Assembly (NCBI GenBank): GCA_964455305.1 | Contig: CAYVVU010000001.1 | Coordinates: 14,530-63,640 of the forward strand | Length of the DNA stretch: 49,111 bases | Reading direction: 5' to 3' | Source of the DNA: an uncultured Thermoplasmata archaeon | GTDB lineage: Archaea; Thermoplasmatota; Thermoplasmata; Thermoplasmatales; CAYVVU01 | Part shown: positions 10,006-23,028 of the stretch, in pieces | Layout of the letters: each line of letters opens with the position of its first letter | How positions within the stretch are numbered: the first letter of the stretch is position 1 | Position numbers and translations under genes: made by a program | The notes under the pieces: model-generated | What the model was told of the DNA's origin: nothing | The model's input: the letters and a program-made list of their open reading frames with translations, nothing else | Databases searched by the model: none

Positions 10006-10797
10006 GTGAAAATAAGGCACGCGAATATAGATGATTGCACGGGAATATCCAAACTGCACAGGGCTGTGGATAAAACAACATCTTGGAGAGAAGGAGGGCC
10101 CTGGGTCAATGAGAATTTATGCAAAGAGCATATAGAAAGCGCATTGAAGTACGGATGGGAAATTTATGTGGCCGAGGAGGGAGAAATTTTGGGAGAAGTT
10201 GAGGTTGTCGCTGGGGAAGAGCCAGAGCCCTACGGCTACAATGTACACATATCGGTTTTATATGTCCATCCAAAGTATCAGGGAATTGGTGTTGGGAGGA
10301 AATTGATAAATGAGGTTGTAGAGTATGCAAAATCCAACGATGCAGATACTCTGACAGTGGTTCCATCAAAAAATTCAATGGGATTTTATGAAAAAATGGG
10401 CTTCAGAATTTACGAGGAGTGGAAAAAAATTATAGTTACTCCTCAAAATTGGCATTCAAAAAATAGCGAAAAATTGACCGCGCTTGAAAACAAAGATTAT
10501 TCGGTGGTAAAATATCTTCCCCTTATCGTTGGAAGGTATCAGTCCTCAAAAAATGTGTGGGATTCCGTGGTCCGGAGAACTTTTTCCTTAATGCCGGAGG
10601 CGGATGTTTATGAAACGGAATGTGGTATTGTAGCCCTTGTTGGGAGAGATGTAAAAACGGCGTTTTGCTGGGGGAGGGACGAAAAAATGTGTATTTCTAC
10701 CGCGATAAAAATCTGTAGGCGAACGGGGGCTAAAAAGTTAAAGATTCTCGTACGTGGGGAGGGAGGAGAATTGAAAATACTCAACAGGAATTTTTAA
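10006..10797 (+). CDS. GNAT-family N-acetyltransferase with an uncharacterised C-terminal domain.
   Basis: GTG start. Acetyl-CoA motif VHPKYQGIGVGRKLINEVVEYAK and GFYEKMGF. The ~110 aa C-terminal part is unassigned. Confidence 0.7.
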   Translation: MKIRHANIDDCTGISKLHRAVDKTTSWREGGPWVNENLCKEHIESALKYGWEIYVAEEGEILGEVEVVAGEEPEPYGYNVHISVLYVHPKYQGIGVGRKLINEVVEYAKSNDADTLTVVPSKNSMGFYEKMGFRIYEEWKKIIVTPQNWHSKNSEKLTALENKDYSVVKYLPLIVGRYQSSKNVWDSVVRRTFSLMPEADVYETECGIVALVGRDVKTAFCWGRDEKMCISTAIKICRRTGAKKLKILVRGEGGELKILNRNF

Positions 10798-11296
10798 AAA
10801 CCATAATAGTCCCCTTTTCCTCTTCCCAAAATTGAAGTGGCACTCTACCAATTATTTCAAAAATTTCTTTCGCTTCCTTGTTTCTTTTCAATATTGAAAT
10901 CCATGCCTCCTCTGAAACTCTTATACATTCATCCACGAAACTCTTCCACAGGCTTTTCGGAATGTCCTGCATAACTGTAAACGAAACGCACAGATCAAAA
11001 TAGCAGTTGGAGTAAGGGATGTTCAGAGCATCGCTCACTATGAATTCGGCACTTGGAACTCTTTCTCTCGCTATTTCTATCATTTTTTCCGCGATATCTA
11101 TTCCTACGACCTCCACGGCACCTAACGCAACTATTCTTTCGGTAATTATTCCTGTTCCACACCCCACATCTATCACCCTTTTACCCGAAAAAGAGAGTCC
11201 TCTATTTAATGCAAATTCCAATTTTTTGATTTGCTCCTCGCCGTAAAGTTCATCGTAGCCGCGAGCAATGGCGTTGTAATATTCTCGTGCATTCAC
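10781..11296 (-). CDS. Class I SAM-dependent methyltransferase.
   Basis: Motif I VIDVGCGTGIITE and motif II VVGIDIAEKMIEIA. Its 3' end overlaps the GNAT 3' end by 17 nt. Confidence 0.8.
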   Translation of the reverse strand: MNAREYYNAIARGYDELYGEEQIKKLEFALNRGLSFSGKRVIDVGCGTGIITERIVALGAVEVVGIDIAEKMIEIARERVPSAEFIVSDALNIPYSNCYFDLCVSFTVMQDIPKSLWKSFVDECIRVSEEAWISILKRNKEAKEIFEIIGRVPLQFWEEEKGTIMVFKNSC

Positions 11297-11593
11297 ATAG
11301 AGGTGATTGACCTAAAATATTTAGAATTTAACTTCTTTCAGAGCGTATTTGAAATTTGGAGGAAAATTTAAATATCTGTTAGGTGATAAGATAAATATGG
11401 AAACGACGATTATGGAGAGGATATGGAAGTTGCTTGTGAGGAAATCACCTGTGCTTGAACTTATGAAATACATGAAATTGATAACTTTACTCTGTTCGCA
11501 CATCCCTTTACGACTTATTGTTCTTTCTTTAAACTTATCTTCTCATCATATTTCCACATATATAATTCAAATATTAGTGGAGGTGATGCACCT

Positions 11594-11887
11594 ATGAAAA
11601 AAGAGGATCAATCAGTTGATGATTTTGAATTTTTTGTATCAGCTCTCTGGTTGTTTTATTTAACTCTTTTACTTCTAATTATAGAATACCTCTCAAATAT
11701 TATTATGTCTCTGCCCGTTTTTATGATGGGTGAGTTATCACTTTGGGGTTTGTATTCATACAAATCCAAACAAACAGGAAAATCCTATAAGGATTCAAAA
11801 TATTGGTTCATGATATGTTTGGCGTTAATGTATGCGGTTATGATTATTGCTTATACTGCGCGTATGATGGTTAGTATCAGCGATTAA
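11594..11887 (+). CDS. Small membrane protein (97 aa, about 3 TM segments); hypothetical.
   Basis: GGAGGTGA SD 7 nt upstream of the ATG. Hydrophobic segments are present. The C-terminal 38 aa are paralogous to the 44-aa ORF at 22143..22277. Confidence 0.55.
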   Translation: MKKEDQSVDDFEFFVSALWLFYLTLLLLIIEYLSNIIMSLPVFMMGELSLWGLYSYKSKQTGKSYKDSKYWFMICLALMYAVMIIAYTARMMVSISD

Positions 11888-11960
11888 GTTTTATGGGGTT
11901 GGTATAGAGATTATAGGTGCGGAATACGAGATAATATGGAGATAGAGAGGTTTATATATA
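11771..11960 (+). repeat. Copy A of a ~190-bp repeat: 3' part of a small TM-peptide gene, ~70 nt of non-coding sequence and a TATA box.
   Basis: Ungapped hand alignment to the reverse complement of 22071..22260, roughly 85% identical. It ends in gtttatatat, about 26 nt upstream of ATG 11981. Confidence 0.85.
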
Positions 11961-11980
11961 GCGATGCAATATGATTAAAT

Positions 11981-12199
11981 ATGAGCGAGGAAGTAGAGGA
12001 GATCAAGGATAAGAACTACGAGTTCTATATAAATGCGGATTTAAGCGAATATGCGGGAAAGTGGATTGCGATAGTGGATGGAAAGGTAGTTGCGAGCGGA
12101 GATAGAGCGGACGAGGTAGGCAGAGAAGCGGAGCGAAAATATCCAAACAAGAAGATAGCATTAGCCAAAGTTCCTGAAGGAGATACCCTAATTCTATAA
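11981..12199 (+). CDS. DUF5678-like small protein.
   Basis: 72 aa. KWIAIVDGKVVASGDRADEV...KYPNKKIALAKVP matches my memory of the DUF5678 family. Leaderless spacing from the TATA box. Confidence 0.65.
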   Translation: MSEEVEEIKDKNYEFYINADLSEYAGKWIAIVDGKVVASGDRADEVGREAERKYPNKKIALAKVPEGDTLIL

Positions 12200-12212
12200 G
12201 AGGTGAAATCCT

Positions 12213-14217
<2,005 letters not shown>

Positions 14218-14226
14218 AAACAGGTA

Positions 14227-15066
14227 TTAACCTAACCAGCAAGTATTTTTATCTTCCCTAATAAATTCTTTAATCTCTCTTATATATGAGGGATTGATAT
14301 GTTTATCTTTATCATCTTTGAAGTATTTCTGTTTCCACCCTCTATATCCACTTGGATGGTATATTCCAAGAATCTTCTTATCTTTCAATAACTTTTCATA
14401 TTTAGAATCACTAGCAAGTTTTATCATATTGTTATATGATGCCTTTCCAAGACATAATATAATATCTCCCTTAATCAAATTCAGAACTTTACCCATAAAC
14501 TTGTTTATACATTCAGTACTGTCTACAGATAACGATTTCTTATTGGCTTTAGAATTCTGATAATCTTCTTCGTATTCACAATACACAACCTCAGTCCATA
14601 GGATAAGATCATCTTTCTGAAGTCCAAGATATTTATACGTCTGATTCAGAAAACTTTTTGTATTGTGGAAATAGCTAAGGATGTTTTCATACTTTTTGTT
14701 GAGTTTTTCAAAGTATGTGCTGAGCCATAGAGTGTATATTTCTTCAAAAGCTAATTTACATTTGTCATTAATATCATTCTCTGTTGGATGTTTAATATTA
14801 TACTTATCAAGTATGTGAAGATAAAACTTGTTTTCAAATGGCAGTATATGACCTGGATTAATTCCAAAAATACCTAGCCTTATCTCATCACTTGCATTCT
14901 TTAATTTTTCAACGAATTCTTTAGAATCATTCACATACTCTATTTTATCTAAAATGAATACCCTAGGGATTATTCCCTTCTCGGGTTTGTTTATGATGTT
15001 CGGACAGTTCTTCCTACAACATATTATTTCTGCCCCTATGTTTATGAAATCTTCATACACTCCCAT
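14227..15066 (-). CDS. Divergent uracil-DNA-glycosylase-superfamily protein, MUG/TDG-like motif 1, with a large insertion.
   Basis: 279 aa. Ordered landmarks are RLGIFGINPGH, WTEVVYCE, IILCLGKASY and ILGIYHPSGY. It has an N-terminal CCRKNC patch and very AT-rich coding sequence. A TATA-like aaatttaatattt lies about 28 nt upstream of the ATG. Confidence 0.55.
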   Translation of the reverse strand: MGVYEDFINIGAEIICCRKNCPNIINKPEKGIIPRVFILDKIEYVNDSKEFVEKLKNASDEIRLGIFGINPGHILPFENKFYLHILDKYNIKHPTENDINDKCKLAFEEIYTLWLSTYFEKLNKKYENILSYFHNTKSFLNQTYKYLGLQKDDLILWTEVVYCEYEEDYQNSKANKKSLSVDSTECINKFMGKVLNLIKGDIILCLGKASYNNMIKLASDSKYEKLLKDKKILGIYHPSGYRGWKQKYFKDDKDKHINPSYIREIKEFIREDKNTCWLG

Positions 15067-15115
15067 AAAAATAGATAAGTGTACACAAAATATTAAATTT
15101 TTTCATTAATGCAGA

Positions 15116-15643
15116 TTAGTCAAGCTTTAGTTTATTTATCTCCTGAAAGTGTTTGATCATTTGAATTAATGTTGTACATGGATAATTTTCGTGATAAAAC
15201 CATCTATATTTGCGATCATACTTTTCTCTAATAAAATCTGCAAGCTCATTTACTATTTCCCAAAAACATTTAACTTCAAAACCTTTACTTTCGGCATATT
15301 TACGAGTATTATCCGTTAAATTCCAACAATAAATAACTTTTCTTAGTTTTCTGCAAGTTTTACTTTTTATATTCATATTTTCCAAACATTTCTGAAAATC
15401 CTTATTTTTAAATTGTTGTGCTATTTCATCTACATCCTTTCTTGAAATATCATATGATTTAACTTCTCCTATTATACATTCGGAAATTTTACCGTTTTCA
15501 TCTATTTTGATAGCTACAATATCTATATCAGACCAGCCAGAACCCTTTTCAACTCTTTTTAAGAATTTAACATCAACTTTTACAATGTATTTTCCAATAA
15601 GCTCAAGGTATTCCCTCACTAAATTTTCATATATACTAACCAT
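15116..15643 (-). CDS. PD-(D/E)xK (restriction-endonuclease-like) nuclease-fold protein.
   Basis: 175 aa. The N-terminal helix carries E (ENLVREYLE), then SDIDIVAI ... IGEVKSY, a classic D-x(n)-E-x-K core. A tttaaata box lies about 27 nt upstream of the ATG. Confidence 0.6.
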   Translation of the reverse strand: MVSIYENLVREYLELIGKYIVKVDVKFLKRVEKGSGWSDIDIVAIKIDENGKISECIIGEVKSYDISRKDVDEIAQQFKNKDFQKCLENMNIKSKTCRKLRKVIYCWNLTDNTRKYAESKGFEVKCFWEIVNELADFIREKYDRKYRWFYHENYPCTTLIQMIKHFQEINKLKLD

Positions 15644-15749
15644 AAACTCTCATTACATTATGATATTTAAACTTTCCTATAATGGGCAAGGAAATTTTCA
15701 GTATGGAGAATATCATTACTAAAATGGCAGAATATTTTTGTGCAAAAAG

Positions 15750-15834
15750 TGCGGGGGGAGGGATTTGAACCCTCGAACCCCTACGGGACGGGACCCTAAA
15801 TCCCGCGCCTTTGACCTGACTCGGCAACCCCCGC
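15750..15834 (-). tRNA. tRNA-Leu (anticodon UAG), class II with a long variable arm; no encoded CCA, no intron.
   Basis: The reverse complement folds as acceptor GCGGGGG/CCCCCGC and D stem GCC/GGC. Anticodon stem CGGGA/UCCCG has loop UU-UAG-GG. The variable arm is CCCGUAGGGG and the T arm is GAGGG-UUCAAAU-CCCUC. An oligo-T (cttttt) follows. Confidence 0.9.
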
Positions 15835-15891
15835 TCCGAAACCATTAAATCTCAAGTATATATAAGAGTAGCGGGTTCGGAGGTTTCTCCT

Positions 15892-16347
15892 GTGAAGGAC
15901 ATGGGTAAGGTACTTTACAGAAGTACTGCTGGAAAAGACGAACGCGGAAGGTTACTTGGAAGTATAGGTTTTGTTATGGGAATAATCGGAATAAGTTTGG
16001 GTATTTTGGCTATACTTATCGGTGGAGATCCTTTATTTGCCGGTATGGGTATTACTTATGGAGCAATGGGTTCTTTGATGGGTTACAGGGCGATAACCCT
16101 TGAAGTGATAATAGGAGAAAAAGGCATTGCAGTTCCGGGAAGCATAGGAAGGATATATATTTCATATAAAGATATAGCAGAAATTAGGCTGAACAATTCA
16201 CCCGAAAACTTCAATTTGTTCGTTGAAATAGTTACGAAAGAAGGAAAAGTAATAAAAGTGAATAAAAATTTAATAAAAAATTGGAAACATTTTTACGATG
16301 TAGTTATGGAACATCTATCCAAGAAGGTTAAGGTCGTTGCTCATTAA
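15892..16347 (+). CDS. Membrane protein with 2 TM helices and a small beta-rich, bacterial-PH-like C-terminal domain.
   Basis: 151 aa. TM segments LLGSIGFVMGIIGISLGILAILIGG and FAGMGITYGAMGSLMGY, then GIAVPGSIGRIYISYKDIAEIRL. TATA tatatataag lies about 28 nt upstream. The start is GTG 15892 or ATG 15901. Confidence 0.6.
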   Translation: MKDMGKVLYRSTAGKDERGRLLGSIGFVMGIIGISLGILAILIGGDPLFAGMGITYGAMGSLMGYRAITLEVIIGEKGIAVPGSIGRIYISYKDIAEIRLNNSPENFNLFVEIVTKEGKVIKVNKNLIKNWKHFYDVVMEHLSKKVKVVAH

Positions 16348-16423
16348 AATTTATTATCAACTATTTTCCAGCTACTTGTAAAAACGACAAAAAACTAATA
16401 TCCAATAAATTATTTTGCGTTTT

Positions 16424-17203
16424 ATGGTTGAGCACGAGGTTTACGAAGCTGTGAGGGATAAAAAACGGATAACGAAAACCCTTATTCTTCTGGAGATAGT
16501 AAAGGGTGCGCGAAAATTAAAGGAAATTGCCGACGCTATAGGAATAACTATACAGGGCGTATCGGATTATGTGAGAGAGATGGTTGAGGAAGGTCTGATA
16601 ACCAAAGATATGAAGATAACAATGGAAGGTGTGGATTTTATTGAAAAAAGTGTGAAAAGTATGGATTCTTTTCTTAAGGAGGCAAACAAAAGGTTACAGA
16701 TGATAAGGATAGTTGACGCAATAGCCGCGGAAGATATAGAGGAGGGAGATGAGGTCGGTCTTTTCATGCGTAAAGGCAGGGTTATGGCTAGGAAGGGCGA
16801 AGAGGATTCCATGGGAATAGCGATTAATTCCGCGAGAAAGGGGGAGGATGTTGGTGTAACATCTCTCAGGGGAATATTAAAGATAGATAGAGGCAGGATA
16901 AAGATTTGCGTTCTGCCTTCCATATCGGAGGGTGGTAGCAGGGCTGTGAATTATCGGAAGATTGAGAATTTAATCGCTGAGGGATTTGATATATACGCAG
17001 CCTATGGCTCGGTGGCTGTGGTAACTCTTGAGAAAATAGGTATAGATAGATTCGTGGAGTTCGCCCCCGCAATTATGTGTGTTGAATGTGCCTTAAAAGG
17101 GATGAATCCTCTTTTGCTCGTCTCTAAGGATTACCTCTCCCATATAATAAGGGAGATAACCACTTACGGCTACGATGTTGATTATGAGATAGTCAGCGTG
17201 TAA
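16424..17203 (+). CDS. Winged-HTH transcriptional regulator with a conserved-archaeal-type C-terminal domain.
   Basis: wHTH ILLEIVKGARKLKEIADAIGITIQGVSDYVREMVEEGLI. ATG 16424 lies about 26 nt after the AT box aactaatatcc. The track start TTG 16415 is the alternative. Confidence 0.7.
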   Translation: MVEHEVYEAVRDKKRITKTLILLEIVKGARKLKEIADAIGITIQGVSDYVREMVEEGLITKDMKITMEGVDFIEKSVKSMDSFLKEANKRLQMIRIVDAIAAEDIEEGDEVGLFMRKGRVMARKGEEDSMGIAINSARKGEDVGVTSLRGILKIDRGRIKICVLPSISEGGSRAVNYRKIENLIAEGFDIYAAYGSVAVVTLEKIGIDRFVEFAPAIMCVECALKGMNPLLLVSKDYLSHIIREITTYGYDVDYEIVSV

Positions 17204-17722
17204 TCATCCCAGATCTTTTAGAACTACCGCGAATATCGCCGCGGAGCCGAAACCCGTCATAGCGCCGGTTATTGCTCTTATCAGATTTGTACTTTCGTAG
17301 GGAGTTAAAAGTTGTACTCCTCCATCCACCATAAGAGGAATAAGCAAAACGATATACACAATTTCGGGAATTCTAAACGACATAAAAGAGTATATTAGGA
17401 GGGTAATGGCGAATGTCACGAAAATCGCTGTACATCTTGAGCAAACGGGCATCTGATTTCCGTTAATGAAGAACGAGCGAGATGCGTGCTGATGACATAT
17501 GAAATCCCCTATTTTGTAGGTAATTCTCGCTAGGTTCGTTTTCATCTTGGAAATTTCCTTGCCGTGGTCCATAATTACCGTTTTTCCGTCATCTCCGAGA
17601 TATATCGTATTTGGGGGCTCAACCAACGGGGCGAGAATTATCATAAAAGCCCAGAAGAGGAAAAGAAGAGCCAACGAGAATACCCAAAGTGAAAATTTGA
17701 ACTCAACGAATGGTCGTTCCAT
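17204..17722 (-). CDS. DUF2085-family membrane protein.
   Basis: CHQHASRSFFINGNQMPVCSRCTAIF motif and multiple TM helices. The start is uncertain (ATG 17722 or 17767); either overlaps the pyrH 3' end. Confidence 0.7.
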   Translation of the reverse strand: MERPFVEFKFSLWVFSLALLFLFWAFMIILAPLVEPPNTIYLGDDGKTVIMDHGKEISKMKTNLARITYKIGDFICHQHASRSFFINGNQMPVCSRCTAIFVTFAITLLIYSFMSFRIPEIVYIVLLIPLMVDGGVQLLTPYESTNLIRAITGAMTGFGSAAIFAVVLKDLG

Positions 17723-18371
17723 AGAATTTCTTTCCCTCCAGCGCCTTCTTGAAATTCTCCAAGTCATTTCCGTTGAGGATTTTTATAACTATTTTGCTCC
17801 TGGCCGCAATTTTTATCGCTAAAGGATCCATGACGAAATTCGTTGAAGCCCCCTTATAAGATTCCAACGCCATTTTCAATGCCCTATCGTAAGATATTTT
17901 TTCAATTAGTTTGACATCCCTGTGTTTTCTGGGATCTTTATCGTAGATGCCGTCCACATTGCTAAGATTTATTACCTCCTTACATTTTGTTCTCTCAGCC
18001 ACCATTAAGGCCACGGCATCCGTGGTGTGGCCGGGCTCCGTACCTCCCATGAAAACAAGGTTGTGGGTAGCCAACGCCTTGACGGCTTCCACCACATTTA
18101 ATGGCACATTAGGATAAGAATCTTCGGAGATGAATAGGGAAGCATTAATTCTTGTGGCCATTATCCCGAGGTAATCAAGCAGGAATTCGTCAAGACCGAG
18201 TTTTCTACCAACCTGAACATACTTCCTGGCGATTTCACCGCCGCCCACCACAACGCATATCTTATCCTTTCTGGAATACTCCCTCACAATGTTGTGAAAT
18301 TCTTTTATATAAGCAGTTCTTATGGCCCCACGCTTCCATATAAGCGAACCGCCCAGCGAAATTACTTTCAT
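17703..18371 (-). CDS. pyrH: Uridylate (UMP) kinase, archaeal type.
   Basis: MKVISLGGSLI, VVVGGGEIARKY and GGTEPGHTTDAVA. I prefer ATG 18371; the upstream track extension is hydrophobic junk. Confidence 0.9.
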   Translation of the reverse strand: MKVISLGGSLIWKRGAIRTAYIKEFHNIVREYSRKDKICVVVGGGEIARKYVQVGRKLGLDEFLLDYLGIMATRINASLFISEDSYPNVPLNVVEAVKALATHNLVFMGGTEPGHTTDAVALMVAERTKCKEVINLSNVDGIYDKDPRKHRDVKLIEKISYDRALKMALESYKGASTNFVMDPLAIKIAARSKIVIKILNGNDLENFKKALEGKKFYGTTIR

Positions 18372-20466: not shown

Positions 20467-21429
20467 ATGTTTGAAAAATTGCCTCATGTGGCTACATCGG
20501 AGGAAATAGTGGACCAGGCGTTTAAAAGGGCTTCAAAGATAACGGTGAAAGGAATAAAGGACCCTCTTAAGAGATACAAGAGTTTGAACATAGCGAAGAT
20601 AACCGCCGTGCGGGACATTGTTCTGAAAAATCTTAGCATCGTGGATAAATGGCCCTATGTAAATAGAATACATCCATTTTACCGGGAACTGCTGGACATA
20701 GTTGTTGGAATCTCCCCCTACAAAAAGGCCCTATCTGAAATTAACTGGGCTCGCGGGAAAATTGAAGGTCTCTGGGAGAAATACAAAAACAGGATCAAGG
20801 GCGCTGAAAGTGAGAAGGAAATATATTCCCTACGGAGAGAGTTTTATGGTAGGGTTGCATCCATACTTGATGAGATAGAGGATTCCCTGTTATTTTTGAT
20901 AAATGCCAGAGAGAAATTGAGAAAACTTCCATCTGTGAATCCCGATGATTTCTGTGTGGTTCTTGCCGGGTACCCAAACGTTGGCAAATCAATGCTTGTC
21001 CGTAGGATATCCACAGCTGAGCCAGAAATAGCCTCGTATCCATTCACGACGAAAGGGATAATTGTGGGTCATATGGATTATGATGGTGGAAGGATAGTTA
21101 TTGTGGATACCCCGGGAATCCTTGATCGCCCACCGGAAAAGATGAAGGATATGGAAAAGCAGGCATTATTAGCGCTAAGACACCTCGCTGATTTAATAAT
21201 TTTTCTCTTAGATCCCACGGAACAATGCGGGTATTCGCTGGAAGCACAGGAATCTCTTTTGCTCTCGCTGAAAAAAATGTTTCCTGACAAAGAATTTCTT
21301 GTGGTTGAGAACAAGGCAGATGTGGTTGAAAGACCAACAAACAACATAAAGATTTCCGCTCTTACGGGCAAAAATGTAGATTATCTGGTGGATGTTATTC
21401 TGAGGAAAGTAAGAGAGAAAAAGAAATGA
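20467..21429 (+). CDS. NOG1-family GTP-binding protein.
   Basis: NOG1-type N-terminal helical domain, then G1 GYPNVGKS, G3 DTPG and G4 NKAD. ATG 20467 lies about 28 nt after catttatga. The upstream 166 codons of the track ORF are antisense to FKBP. Confidence 0.85.
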   Translation: MFEKLPHVATSEEIVDQAFKRASKITVKGIKDPLKRYKSLNIAKITAVRDIVLKNLSIVDKWPYVNRIHPFYRELLDIVVGISPYKKALSEINWARGKIEGLWEKYKNRIKGAESEKEIYSLRREFYGRVASILDEIEDSLLFLINAREKLRKLPSVNPDDFCVVLAGYPNVGKSMLVRRISTAEPEIASYPFTTKGIIVGHMDYDGGRIVIVDTPGILDRPPEKMKDMEKQALLALRHLADLIIFLLDPTEQCGYSLEAQESLLLSLKKMFPDKEFLVVENKADVVERPTNNIKISALTGKNVDYLVDVILRKVREKKK

Positions 21430-21446
21430 AATGGTTTGTATTGTTG

Positions 21447-22037
21447 TTAATAACCTTTCATCTCCCTCCACTTATTTACTAGCTCTATAACTTGGGGTTT
21501 ATATTTTTCGGGAACATTTTCCCAGATTATATCCACCCGCGAAATTAGAGGCAGAAACATATTGGCTATTTCAATATACGCCTCGTATGTTTTTTGAGAT
21601 GGCAATATCAATATATATTTGTAGCCGGGGTAATCTCTACATCCGAGAAGAAGGGTGTATTTTATTCCACTTCTTGGCTTTATACAAAAACCGCCTGTAA
21701 GTAAGATTACGCTTTCAATATCCTCTTTTCTGATTATATACTTATATGGAAATCCTATTACCGTTATTGAGTCATTACCTACCCTTATAATAAATGGTAT
21801 TCCTGTAGAAATGAGAAGCATACTTAAGATTCCAAGAATATTTGCGCCTATTATTGTCCAAGTTCCAGAATAGAGTTTTTTCCCTATAGTTGGGTGAAGA
21901 ATAAATATAATAATAATGTCAGCAAGTAAAAGTCCAGGAAGAATTGCAAAAAAGAACAATATCTGAGAATAAGATTTTGTTCTATAGCGTTGAATGTTAA
22001 ACCTCTCGCCCGGAGGAGAATAAACTTTCCTGTTCAT
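21447..22037 (-). CDS. Membrane protein (2-3 TM) with a bPH-like C-terminal domain; hypothetical.
   Basis: 196 aa. TM segments ILFFFAILPGLLLADIIIIFIL and WTIIGANILGILSMLLISTGIPFII, then ITVIGFPYKYIIRKEDIESVILL. GGAGG SD. The promoter is supplied by repeat copy B. Confidence 0.6.
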   Translation of the reverse strand: MNRKVYSPPGERFNIQRYRTKSYSQILFFFAILPGLLLADIIIIFILHPTIGKKLYSGTWTIIGANILGILSMLLISTGIPFIIRVGNDSITVIGFPYKYIIRKEDIESVILLTGGFCIKPRSGIKYTLLLGCRDYPGYKYILILPSQKTYEAYIEIANMFLPLISRVDIIWENVPEKYKPQVIELVNKWREMKGY

Positions 22038-22070
22038 GGGATTCCTCCTCTGGTAGTATGAAGATATCCA

Positions 22071-22260
22071 ATATATAAACTTCTCTATTTCCAGATTATC
22101 CCATATTCCCCGCCTATAACCTCTATACTAACCCCATAAAACTTAATCACAGCTACTAAATACCATAAGCACAATATAAGCAATAATCATAAGAGCATAC
22201 ATTAACGCCAAACATATCATGAACCAATATTTTGATTTTGTATAATATTTTCCTGTTTTT
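22071..22260 (-). repeat. Copy B (inverted) of the ~190-bp repeat.
   Basis: Its reverse complement aligns ungapped to 11771..11960 at about 85% identity. The non-coding 3' part is better conserved than the coding part. Confidence 0.85.
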
Positions 22261-22277
22261 TGAACCCACCCGCTCAT
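22143..22277 (-). CDS. Unannotated 44-aa single-TM peptide, below the ORF-track length cut-off.
   Basis: My translation is MSGWVQKTGKYYTKSKYWFMICLALMYALMIIAYIVLMVFSSCD. It matches the C-terminus of the 97-aa ORF (QTGKSYKDSKYWFMICLALMYAVMIIAYTARMMVSISD). It starts 8 nt after the stop of the 182-aa gene. Confidence 0.45.
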   Translation of the reverse strand: MSGWVQKTGKYYTKSKYWFMICLALMYALMIIAYIVLMVFSSCD

Positions 22278-22285
22278 TTTCCGCC

Positions 22286-22825
22286 CTACGCATATATGAT
22301 TTCATACTCAACACCAATCTCCTTCATGGCCTTCTTGAAGCGCTCAAATTGGTCATAGTATAAAATATAATACTCTATCTCACGCCTATGTAACCGTTTT
22401 GAATAGATAACCTTTCCATTTCTAAGGTATATTTCAATTCTCTTTTTCCTCACATTAATTATTAGTTTTTGAATATCATTCTTTGGTATAAATTTTATTT
22501 CTTTATTGCCTCTTATTATTCCTATGCCTGTTTTATATATAACTATATATGTCAAAGAGCGTGTTAACGCAGTTAATCCCATCCATCCAGATAAAAAAAT
22601 CCACATTAATGATCCTAACATTCGTAAGCACCATGTTAATAAGTCAATAATACCTTCTAACATGGAAGTAGTATAAAGCCACAATATTATAGAATGCAAT
22701 AGAAATATTATTAAAAGTTCTATTTTCACTATTTTTACATACTTTTTTATAAGTTTCTTCTCATTCCTGTAAAAAACTTCAGAAAAAAGTGGCTTCTCCT
22801 TTTTATTTATCTCCGAGGTTTTCAT
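22286..22825 (-). CDS. Membrane protein (about 3 TM) with a bPH-like C-terminal domain; hypothetical.
   Basis: TM segments LLIIFLLHSIILWLY and LGSLMWIFLSGWMGLTAL, then GIGIIRGNKEIKFIPKNDIQKLII. ATG 22825 fits leaderless spacing from gattataag; GTG 22834 is the alternative. Confidence 0.6.
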   Translation of the reverse strand: MKTSEINKKEKPLFSEVFYRNEKKLIKKYVKIVKIELLIIFLLHSIILWLYTTSMLEGIIDLLTWCLRMLGSLMWIFLSGWMGLTALTRSLTYIVIYKTGIGIIRGNKEIKFIPKNDIQKLIINVRKKRIEIYLRNGKVIYSKRLHRREIEYYILYYDQFERFKKAMKEIGVEYEIIYA

Positions 22826-23028
22826 AATTATCACACCCTTATAATCTCCGCCATCGTTCTTTTAATCAAAATTGAGGTGCATCTCAAAGCAATTCCACAC
22901 ATTACCTCTTCTATTATCACCTCCATATTTCTCTTCATTATTTCTGCATATTTAAGTTTTATCTCTCGCAATAATCTTCTCCTGCGATTCTGTTGCGCCA
23001 CACTCCTATTTAAACCTCACCGATTAAC

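Follow-up and report, generated by a model that had tools for sequence, protein, structure and literature searches.

Why do two strongly AT-rich genes sit between guaB and a tRNA-Leu gene in an archaeal genome, and what could their products do? The locus belongs to an uncultured Thermoplasmata archaeon (GenBank assembly GCA_964455305.1) and lies in a 49,111-nt stretch of contig CAYVVU010000001.1 (positions 14,530 to 63,640), which we call the window. One gene encodes a 279-aa protein that resembles uracil-DNA glycosylases (UDGs), and the other encodes a 175-aa putative PD-(D/E)xK nuclease. An earlier note, made from the sequence alone, had proposed either a modification-dependent antiviral module or a mobile base-excision cassette. 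With a probability of about 0.55, we consider this two-gene islet to be a defence islet that was acquired horizontally, occupies a variable hot spot just past the 3' end of tRNA-Leu and carries a glycosylase similar to the antiviral Brig enzymes.

The position and composition of the islet agree with what the earlier note described (Table 1). Two open reading frames (ORFs) on the minus strand fill the space between guaB and tRNA-Leu; guaB ends with its stop codon at 14217, which leaves 9 nt to the stop of the 279-aa gene, and the right edge of the islet is the 3' end of the tRNA gene. The GC content of the islet is 0.286 compared with 0.418 for the whole window, and no other 1,531-bp segment of the 49 kb has a lower value; the minimum is at position 14217, and the islet is 3.8 standard deviations below the segments with which it does not overlap (z = -3.8). 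The GC content at third codon positions is 0.20 for the nuclease gene and 0.30 for the glycosylase gene, compared with 0.44 for guaB and 0.52 for aRF1. An Rfam scan for other RNAs detected the tRNA only.

The acquired look of the islet at the tRNA 3' end was borne out by a related metagenomic contig (L027), which is 91% identical to window positions 15750-17777. The similarity stops directly after the discriminator base of tRNA-Leu, at window position 15750, and beyond the tRNA this contig carries a different AT-rich segment of 2.3 kb (L027 positions 1-2296; GC 0.29-0.36) in which an AAA_15 ATPase gene (Walker A, GKNNSGKTT) survives as frameshifted pieces. Because the relative carries another AT-rich segment there, the 3' flank of tRNA-Leu is a variable hot spot. 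ATPases of the AAA_15 type are common in defence systems, and the site seems to cycle defence cargo. Four further contigs (L026 and L028-L030) come from the same strain as the window. Both signs of a tRNA-targeted element, a similarity break at the tRNA 3' end and foreign composition, are present, and the islet may be the remnant of such an element or a hot spot whose cargo is swapped by recombination.

The prediction that the 279-aa protein has a UDG-superfamily fold was supported by Pfam, by profile comparison and by structure modelling. The protein matches the Pfam UDG family PF03167 above the cut-off (28.0 bits; cut-off, 24.3) over residues 132-250, and several of its homologues bear a precomputed PF03167 hit; the NCBIfam family-4 models score far under their cut-offs (TIGR00758, 17.7 vs 125.3; NF040953, 13.1 vs 250). 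Its family comprises 12 other clearly related cluster representatives among 5.8 billion clusters. When the family profile was compared with the PDB, only family-4 UDG structures were matched, with 4zbx first (E 8.8e-8), followed by TM0511 and 1ui0. Alignment of the profile with three family-4 sequences by hhalign gave a probability of 95.5% and an E-value of 1.6e-8 over 182 columns; the 1ui0 sequence used there matched the chain deposited in the PDB over its full length (E 1.1e-139). The AlphaFold2 (AF2) model, with a mean confidence (pLDDT) of 82.6, was compared with known structures by Foldseek; the best matches were SMUG1, UdgX, BdiUNG and family 4, and UDG-superfamily structures made up 15 of the 17 best matches, including all of the top five. 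No meaningful match was found in PADLOC, PHROG or NCBIfam. On these matches, the protein belongs to the UDG superfamily and derives from an iron-sulfur family-4 UDG.

The earlier note had called the protein MUG/TDG-like, and this description holds for motif 1, since GINPG is the family-2 (MUG/TDG) form of that motif. It does not hold for the rest of the protein. No MUG/TDG chain appeared among the PDB profile matches (E up to 10) or the top 50 Foldseek matches, the closest structures belong to family 4, and the pocket residues resemble those of Brig1. Iron-sulfur cysteines and the histidine of an HPS motif are not MUG/TDG features.

The motifs quoted in the earlier note are all present and are conserved in the homologues. 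Across 12 sequences of the family, G68, N70, P71, G72, F77, E78, Y132, Y162, C163, C186, G207, H237 and S239 do not vary, C17 and C21 hardly vary, and the GINPG and HPS motifs as a whole are invariant or nearly invariant. Because the motif residues are invariant in all 12 members, the glycosylase is probably catalytically active. The hhalign alignment pairs C17-x3-C21 with the CxxC cluster ligands of family 4, and C163 and C186 with the remaining two cluster cysteines (1ui0, 1l9g, 4zbx). The N-terminal CC..C patch pointed out earlier can therefore be refined: it aligns with iron-sulfur ligands and is most simply read as part of an iron-sulfur site, so that the protein probably binds a [4Fe-4S] cluster. 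In the same alignment, GINPG (G68-I-N-P-G72) pairs with family-4 GEGPG, HPS pairs with HPA, and Y132-F133 pairs with the Pro-Phe of the family-4 PFVG motif, in which the Phe stacks against the extruded base. The Asn of TN.VKC, N82 in the Sulfolobus tokodaii UDG, is paired with E159; this position is Glu in 10 of the 12 family members and Asn in the other two. We propose C17, C21, C163 and C186 as cluster ligands and N70, Y132, E159 and H237 as the other key residues.

Family-4 UDGs (Thermus thermophilus 1ui0, Thermotoga maritima 1l9g/1vk2 and S. tokodaii 4zbx) are the best sequence and profile match, and the glycosylase shares with them the four aligned cluster cysteines, the motif B histidine and the order of the core elements. 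It differs in having GINPG instead of GE(A/G)PG as motif A and Glu in place of the uracil-reading Asn. Relative to family 4 it also gains an insertion, a shorter additional stretch ahead of motif 1 and a C-terminal tail. The hhalign alignment puts the insertion, which follows motif 1 and was previously given as about 80 aa, at about 50 aa (residues ~79-129). Unlike the family-4 enzymes, the protein is not encoded by a housekeeping gene.

The earlier note knew of no described system with this pairing. Antiviral UDG-superfamily glycosylases (Brig1, Brig2 and Brig3) have been known since 2024, so that the concept as such is not new. Brig1 excises alpha-glucosyl-hydroxymethylcytosine from T4 DNA and is antiviral, and its closest structural relative is the S. 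tokodaii family-4 UDG (Hossain et al. 2024; PMC11078745). Its activity needs Y121 for stacking and E147, which replaces the usual Asn (N82 in S. tokodaii); it works as a single gene without the need for host AP (abasic-site) endonucleases, and heat-promoted DNA breakage was observed in the same study (PMC11078745). Brig3 excises 5-hydroxymethylcytosine, has an Asn-Pro motif (N50-P51) and is partnered by the deglucosylase BapA. Both Brig1 and Brig3 retain residual uracil activity.

We took the Brig1 sequence from the supplement of PMC11078745; one residue was restored, after which the numbering fits Y121, N145 and E147. The family profile aligned with Brig1 with an E-value of 0.0044 and a probability of 7.9%, which is statistically weak but better than family 4 vs Brig1 (E 0.35), and this alignment pairs GLNPG with GINPG, Y121 with Y132, E147 with E159 and LPSG with HPSG. 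The pocket is thus predicted to match that of Brig1 in its Asn-type motif GxNPG, its Tyr at the stacking position and its Glu in place of the family-4 Asn. Because of the Glu (E159), we infer a cytosine-derived substrate. The two proteins, placed in the same superfamily, both have a large insertion that separates motif 1 from the stacking residue, and the glycosylase family resembles Brig1 in being AT-rich, acquired, rare and patchy and in occurring in defence islands. Unlike Brig1, which has YPW and LPS at those positions, the glycosylase retains the four iron-sulfur cysteines and the HPS histidine, and the family members that could be placed all appear to be archaeal. It adjoins a nuclease gene, whereas Brig1 acts alone and Brig3 is paired with BapA. 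Overall, the family looks intermediate, its scaffold being of the family-4 type and its pocket Brig1-like. Antiviral UDG glycosylases have precedents, as has the logic of a sensor combined with a nuclease (END nucleases and type IV enzymes); what looks new here is an archaeal glycosylase of intermediate appearance with a retained iron-sulfur site and a possible nuclease partner.

The 175-aa neighbour belongs to a small family. An exhaustive search of 1.84 billion proteins yielded 35 cluster representatives including the protein itself, and a word-indexed search retrieved only the query. No match was found in Pfam, NCBIfam, PADLOC or PHROG, nor in a sequence-profile search of the PDB. In 28 aligned sequences, D41 never varies and E11 and E60 rarely do; K62, which completes the ExK motif (GEVK), is conserved in most of them and invariant in the eight closest. 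The AF2 model (pLDDT 94.6) places E11, D41, E60 and K62 on helix 1 and strands 2-3. Foldseek matched the model with a probability of 1.0 to NucS/EndoMS, Cdn1, Card1, VC1899, MspJI, Can2 and the Shedu protein SduA (E 1e-4 to 2e-3 vs 2vld, 5gke, 9u49, 6wxw, 1xmx, 4f0q, 8bao and 8ps4), in agreement with the fold that had been proposed. As modelled, the protein consists of one PD-(D/E)xK nuclease domain whose active site is intact.

This predicted nuclease shares the core fold and the E..D..ExK residues with NucS/EndoMS, Card1, Can2, Cdn1, MspJI and SduA, several of which act in defence. It differs from them in being the domain alone, without the NucS N-terminal domain, the CARF domain, the MspJI reader or the Shedu N-terminal region. 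It does not have the NucS/EndoMS architecture of two domains and a PCNA-binding tail: it is only 175 aa long, the matches cover 122-130 alignment columns on chains of 226-239 residues, and no sequence-level match was found.

The gene neighbourhoods of homologues bear on whether the islet has a defence function. Both families are very rare, and their homologues sit in defence islands. One glycosylase homologue (locus L005) is embedded in the order type III CRISPR-Cas, Csx1, SNase, SRA-HNH, DUF365, glycosylase, EVE, DUF3800, PIN and Eco57I, the Eco57I-type enzyme being 5 kb from the glycosylase gene. A further locus (L007) has the order DUF365, glycosylase, EVE, HEPN/NTase and transposases, and in another (L008) the glycosylase gene is followed by a gene for a DUF5655 protein and by a type I restriction-modification system. 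The three remaining loci discussed here (L001, L031 and L032) give no information on this point or have no evident tie to defence. In every locus, the GC content of the glycosylase gene is below that of its surroundings. The DUF365-glycosylase-EVE slot is syntenic between L005 (7524-9290) and L007 (7706-9250); there the EVE proteins are 81% identical and the glycosylases 39%, which suggests that the glycosylase in this slot is diverging fast or has been replaced. EVE and DUF365 were considered as functional partners of the glycosylase and rejected, because the synteny makes this an inherited gene order that was counted once.

One homologue of the nuclease lies in a Thermoplasmata metagenome-assembled genome (L010, 7995-14984) beside DUF3800; a GIY-YIG gene begins 2 nt after it, and a 958-aa type IIG restriction-modification enzyme and a short pAgo with Aga (PADLOC pAgo_I, 490 bits) are encoded next to them. 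In L009, a beta-CASP gene starts 2 nt downstream of the nuclease gene, and a PADLOC candidate (PDC-M15A) is also present. Other neighbours are GmrSD_N (L021), Mrr (L012) and SLFN_AlbA_2 (L011 and L016). The defence theme raised by the earlier note therefore extends to homologues of both proteins, which lie among CRISPR, restriction-modification, pAgo, GmrSD, SRA-HNH and toxin-antitoxin genes. In the viral contigs of IMG/VR, no member of either family was found.

Two neighbours of glycosylase homologues were considered in their own right. In L008, a 306-aa protein (901-1821) is encoded 4 nt after the glycosylase homologue and abuts the type I restriction-modification operon; near its N terminus it has a D..ExK pattern (RIDTLAF...VIIEYK), a DUF5655 domain forms its C-terminal part, and it is a candidate for another nuclease partner, unrelated to the first. 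Its assignment to PD-(D/E)xK was unconfirmed, with HSDR_N_2 at E 0.039 and nothing in the PDB, NCBIfam or hhalign. The 350-aa protein encoded downstream of the closest glycosylase homologue (L001) was examined as a relative of the 175-aa nuclease and proved unrelated, with no family match.

The growth temperature of the host matters for the fate of abasic sites. Its aRF1 gene and overall gene content mark the host as an archaeon. The fraction of the amino acids IVYWREL is 0.453, which corresponds to predicted growth near 89 °C by the Zeldovich formula, and tRNA-Leu has a GC content of 0.66; the host archaeon is probably hyperthermophilic. Abasic sites are very labile and break fast at such temperatures, so the glycosylase alone could destroy invader DNA.

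Taken as a defence islet, the locus would work as follows. The glycosylase would have evolved from an iron-sulfur family-4 scaffold by a remodelling of the pocket like that in Brig1, in that the GxNPG motif is of the Asn type, a Tyr is in place for stacking, and the Asn that contacts the Watson-Crick face of uracil has given way to Glu. It would flip out and excise a non-canonical base, likeliest a modified cytosine, in viral or plasmid DNA, and would spare ordinary host DNA. The abasic sites would block replication and would be broken quickly by beta-elimination at the host growth temperature. The nuclease would then turn the damaged DNA into double-strand breaks, or it could work on its own as a restriction-like effector. 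The analysis shows the folds, the conserved residues, the foreign composition, the similarity break at the tRNA and the contexts in defence islands; the base that is removed, a role against viruses and any cooperation of the two proteins are inferences.

Whether the two genes form a unit is a separate matter. Hidden Markov models of both families were run against all 32 loci, on the ORFs as well as on translations in six frames. The case for a unit draws on the closest relative of the nuclease (P0022, in L011), downstream of which, on the same strand, lies a gene for a 486-aa protein with a UDG domain (1288-2748), placed between the nuclease homologue and an SLFN_AlbA_2 gene. The N-terminal domain of this protein represents another, divergent family-4 UDG (Pfam, 41.5 bits; NCBIfam UDG_fam4, 49 bits; hhalign probability, 96.4), which keeps the cluster cysteines, has GWAPNP as motif 1 and retains the Asn. 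Its C-terminal domain of about 280 aa belongs to no known family and has an R-x4-H motif (RNFFIH) reminiscent of HEPN. The chance of finding two UDG genes among about 12 assessable downstream neighbours is approximately 1e-4 to 1e-3 by our own rough estimate, which assumes about 1-3 UDG-superfamily genes per genome and uses no defence-island background. The 2-nt spacing in L009 and L010 suggests that members of the nuclease family sit in operons.

The partnership of glycosylase and nuclease is nevertheless unproven; it relies by analogy on the one second case in L011, and we regard functional coupling of the two proteins as less likely than not. A broader and still less probable idea is that the small PD-(D/E)xK protein is the constant half of an unrecognised archaeal two-gene defence architecture with interchangeable DNA-processing partners. 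The candidates observed are family-4-derived iron-sulfur UDGs (twice, from different lineages), a GIY-YIG nuclease, a beta-CASP metallo-hydrolase and a GmrSD-like protein. In the version found in the window, the glycosylase would tag modified viral DNA by removing bases, and its final destruction would fall to the nuclease. If true, it would be the first UDG-fold base-excision-plus-cleavage restriction system and the first antiviral glycosylase described in archaea.

Upstream of each islet gene is a TATA-box-like element (Table 1). TTTAAATA is a possible archaeal promoter of the nuclease gene, which would then have a short leader or none, and given TTTAATAT the glycosylase gene may have its own promoter. 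Both elements are putative, and AT-rich DNA often yields such matches.

Table 1. Features of the islet and its border in window coordinates
Feature	Position	Strand	Basis
AT-rich two-gene islet	14218..15748		guaB stop to tRNA-Leu 3' end; GC minimum and L027 break
279-aa predicted UDG-superfamily glycosylase gene	14227..15066	-	Pfam, profile, hhalign, AF2/Foldseek
TTTAATAT, TATA-box-like	15090..15097	-	~27 nt upstream of glycosylase ATG, within the 49-nt spacer
175-aa predicted single-domain PD-(D/E)xK nuclease gene	15116..15643	-	conserved E11/D41/E60/K62, AF2/Foldseek
TTTAAATA, TATA-box-like	15664..15671	-	~24 nt upstream of nuclease ATG; read from sequence
tRNA-Leu, anticodon UAG	15749/15750-15834	-	ARAGORN; Rfam tRNA 52.8 bits; L027 alignment

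Several observations weigh against reading the locus as a defence islet with a Brig-like glycosylase. The islet contains just two ORFs and no integrase gene, and between 13.8 and 16.2 kb neither a second copy of the tRNA 3' end nor any att-like repeat was found beyond AT-rich repeats at chance level. The Foldseek scores of the glycosylase are modest (E 3e-3 to 8e-2; TM score 0.3-0.5). In PADLOC the glycosylase reaches just 14.7-bit partial matches to Dsr1 and JetB and the nuclease has no match, and the PHROG matches for the islet proteins have E-values of 0.036 or worse. Because the similarity to Brig1 is statistically weak, the residues shared with it may be convergent. The syntenic loci L005 and L007 amount to one observation, and the loci are too few for statistics on enrichment in defence islands. 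As for the pair, its conservation across genomes, which the earlier note had suggested surveying, was not seen: among the 32 loci both families occur together in the window's own strain only, with the nuclease family in 0 of 7 other independent glycosylase loci and the glycosylase family in 0 of 16 other independent nuclease loci. In L011 a gap of 392 nt separates the nuclease and UDG genes, and in the islet each gene has its own TATA-like element, so that an operon is not shown. Hyperthermophiles, moreover, genuinely need additional repair of uracil or hypoxanthine.

Some of these points suit the possibility that the two genes are unrelated hitch-hikers, that is, single-gene cargo lying side by side in a recombination hot spot, either or both of which may serve defence. 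The pair occurs in no other locus, the neighbours of each family are many and varied, each gene has a separate TATA-like element, and Brig1 works alone without host AP endonucleases. The recurrence of a UDG-superfamily gene after the closest relative of the nuclease, with its rough chance of 1e-4 to 1e-3, and the 2-nt spacing to the next gene in L009 and L010 argue against it, and we hold this explanation to be less likely than not. Accessory base-excision repair, in which the glycosylase would remove deaminated bases (uracil or hypoxanthine), which arise fast in the heat, and the nuclease would nick the lesion or abasic site in the manner of NucS/EndoMS on mismatched or deaminated DNA, appears unlikely. 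Its appeal is that the closest structural and sequence relatives (family-4 UDG, SMUG1 and NucS/EndoMS) are repair enzymes, that growth is predicted near 89 °C and that the residual uracil activity of Brig1 and Brig3 makes such activity plausible here. However, a Glu replaces the uracil-reading Asn in 10 of the 12 family members, the DNA-binding domain at the N terminus of NucS is missing from the nuclease, both families have an extremely sparse and patchy distribution, and their homologues lie among defence genes and not repair genes. The islet also has a foreign composition and is absent from the 91%-identical relative.

Two further mechanisms would keep a defence role and change the part played by the glycosylase. 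The UDG-like protein might only read a modified base and recruit or license the nuclease. END nucleases, in which an inactive EndoIII glycosylase fold fused to a nuclease senses hypermodified DNA (PMC12191111), and many type IV restriction enzymes, which join a base-flipping reader to a PD-(D/E)xK or HNH nuclease (PMC6765204, PMC7897488), provide a precedent, and the islet resembles them in combining a base-inspecting protein with a DNA-cutting domain against modified invader DNA. In those systems the parts are fused and the reader is non-catalytic, whereas the islet has separate genes whose link is unproven and a glycosylase that looks catalytically competent. The residues expected to be catalytic (N70 of GxNPG and H237 of HPS) are invariant, most members of the glycosylase family have no adjacent nuclease of that family, and no fusion of the two was found in any of the data, which makes a pure sensor very improbable. 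We give slightly less credence still to a restriction glycosylase of the R.PabI type, which would excise a normal base in a specific sequence unless a host methyltransferase had methylated it. UDG-fold enzymes recognise a flipped-out base, not a DNA sequence, and the UDG fold is not the HALFPIPE fold of R.PabI. The islet has no methyltransferase; the nearest one (10781-11296) matches Pfam families of the general small-molecule or RNA type (Methyltransf_25, _11 and others) and not those of DNA methyltransferases, and it has host-like GC. In favour of this idea, base-excision restriction enzymes occur in hyperthermophilic archaea and are mobile (PMC4615327, PMC10273834), the homologue in L008 borders on a type I restriction-modification system, and in L005 an Eco57I-type enzyme is encoded at a distance of 5 kb.

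Outside the islet, the window contains other features. Just upstream of guaB (11981-12617, plus strand), a 72-aa DUF5678 protein (Pfam, 59 bits) is encoded, and 13 nt after its gene follows that of a 134-aa retropepsin-like aspartyl protease (Asp_protease_2, just under the cut-off); the two look like a small two-gene module. Between the methyltransferase gene and the DUF5678 gene lies a 680-bp low-GC stretch (11300-11980; GC 0.32-0.34) with no convincing ORF and no Rfam match. The mechanically called guaB ORF opens with a GTG and includes 36 codons ahead of the probable real start (12655-12762), and gene callers give 485 aa for guaB on sister contigs. The second most AT-rich patch of the window (21400-22900; GC 0.32) holds two minus-strand ORFs with no Pfam match, one of 196 aa (21447-22037) and one of 182 aa (22286-22834; GC 0.29), and may be another acquired islet.

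Antiviral DNA glycosylases were found only in 2024 and, in the literature we retrieved, have been characterised in bacteria only. The probable defence islet described here, with its Brig-like glycosylase, would carry the idea of an antiviral glycosylase to hyperthermophilic archaea, whose viral DNA modifications are little known and in which, in the heat, an abasic site comes near to being a strand break. A nuclease family that recurs next to UDG-fold genes leads to a testable two-component hypothesis of base excision plus cleavage, and a thermostable glycosylase specific for a modified base could serve in epigenetic base mapping. As an intermediate between family 4 and Brig1, the glycosylase family would give a picture of how a repair glycosylase could turn into an immune effector.

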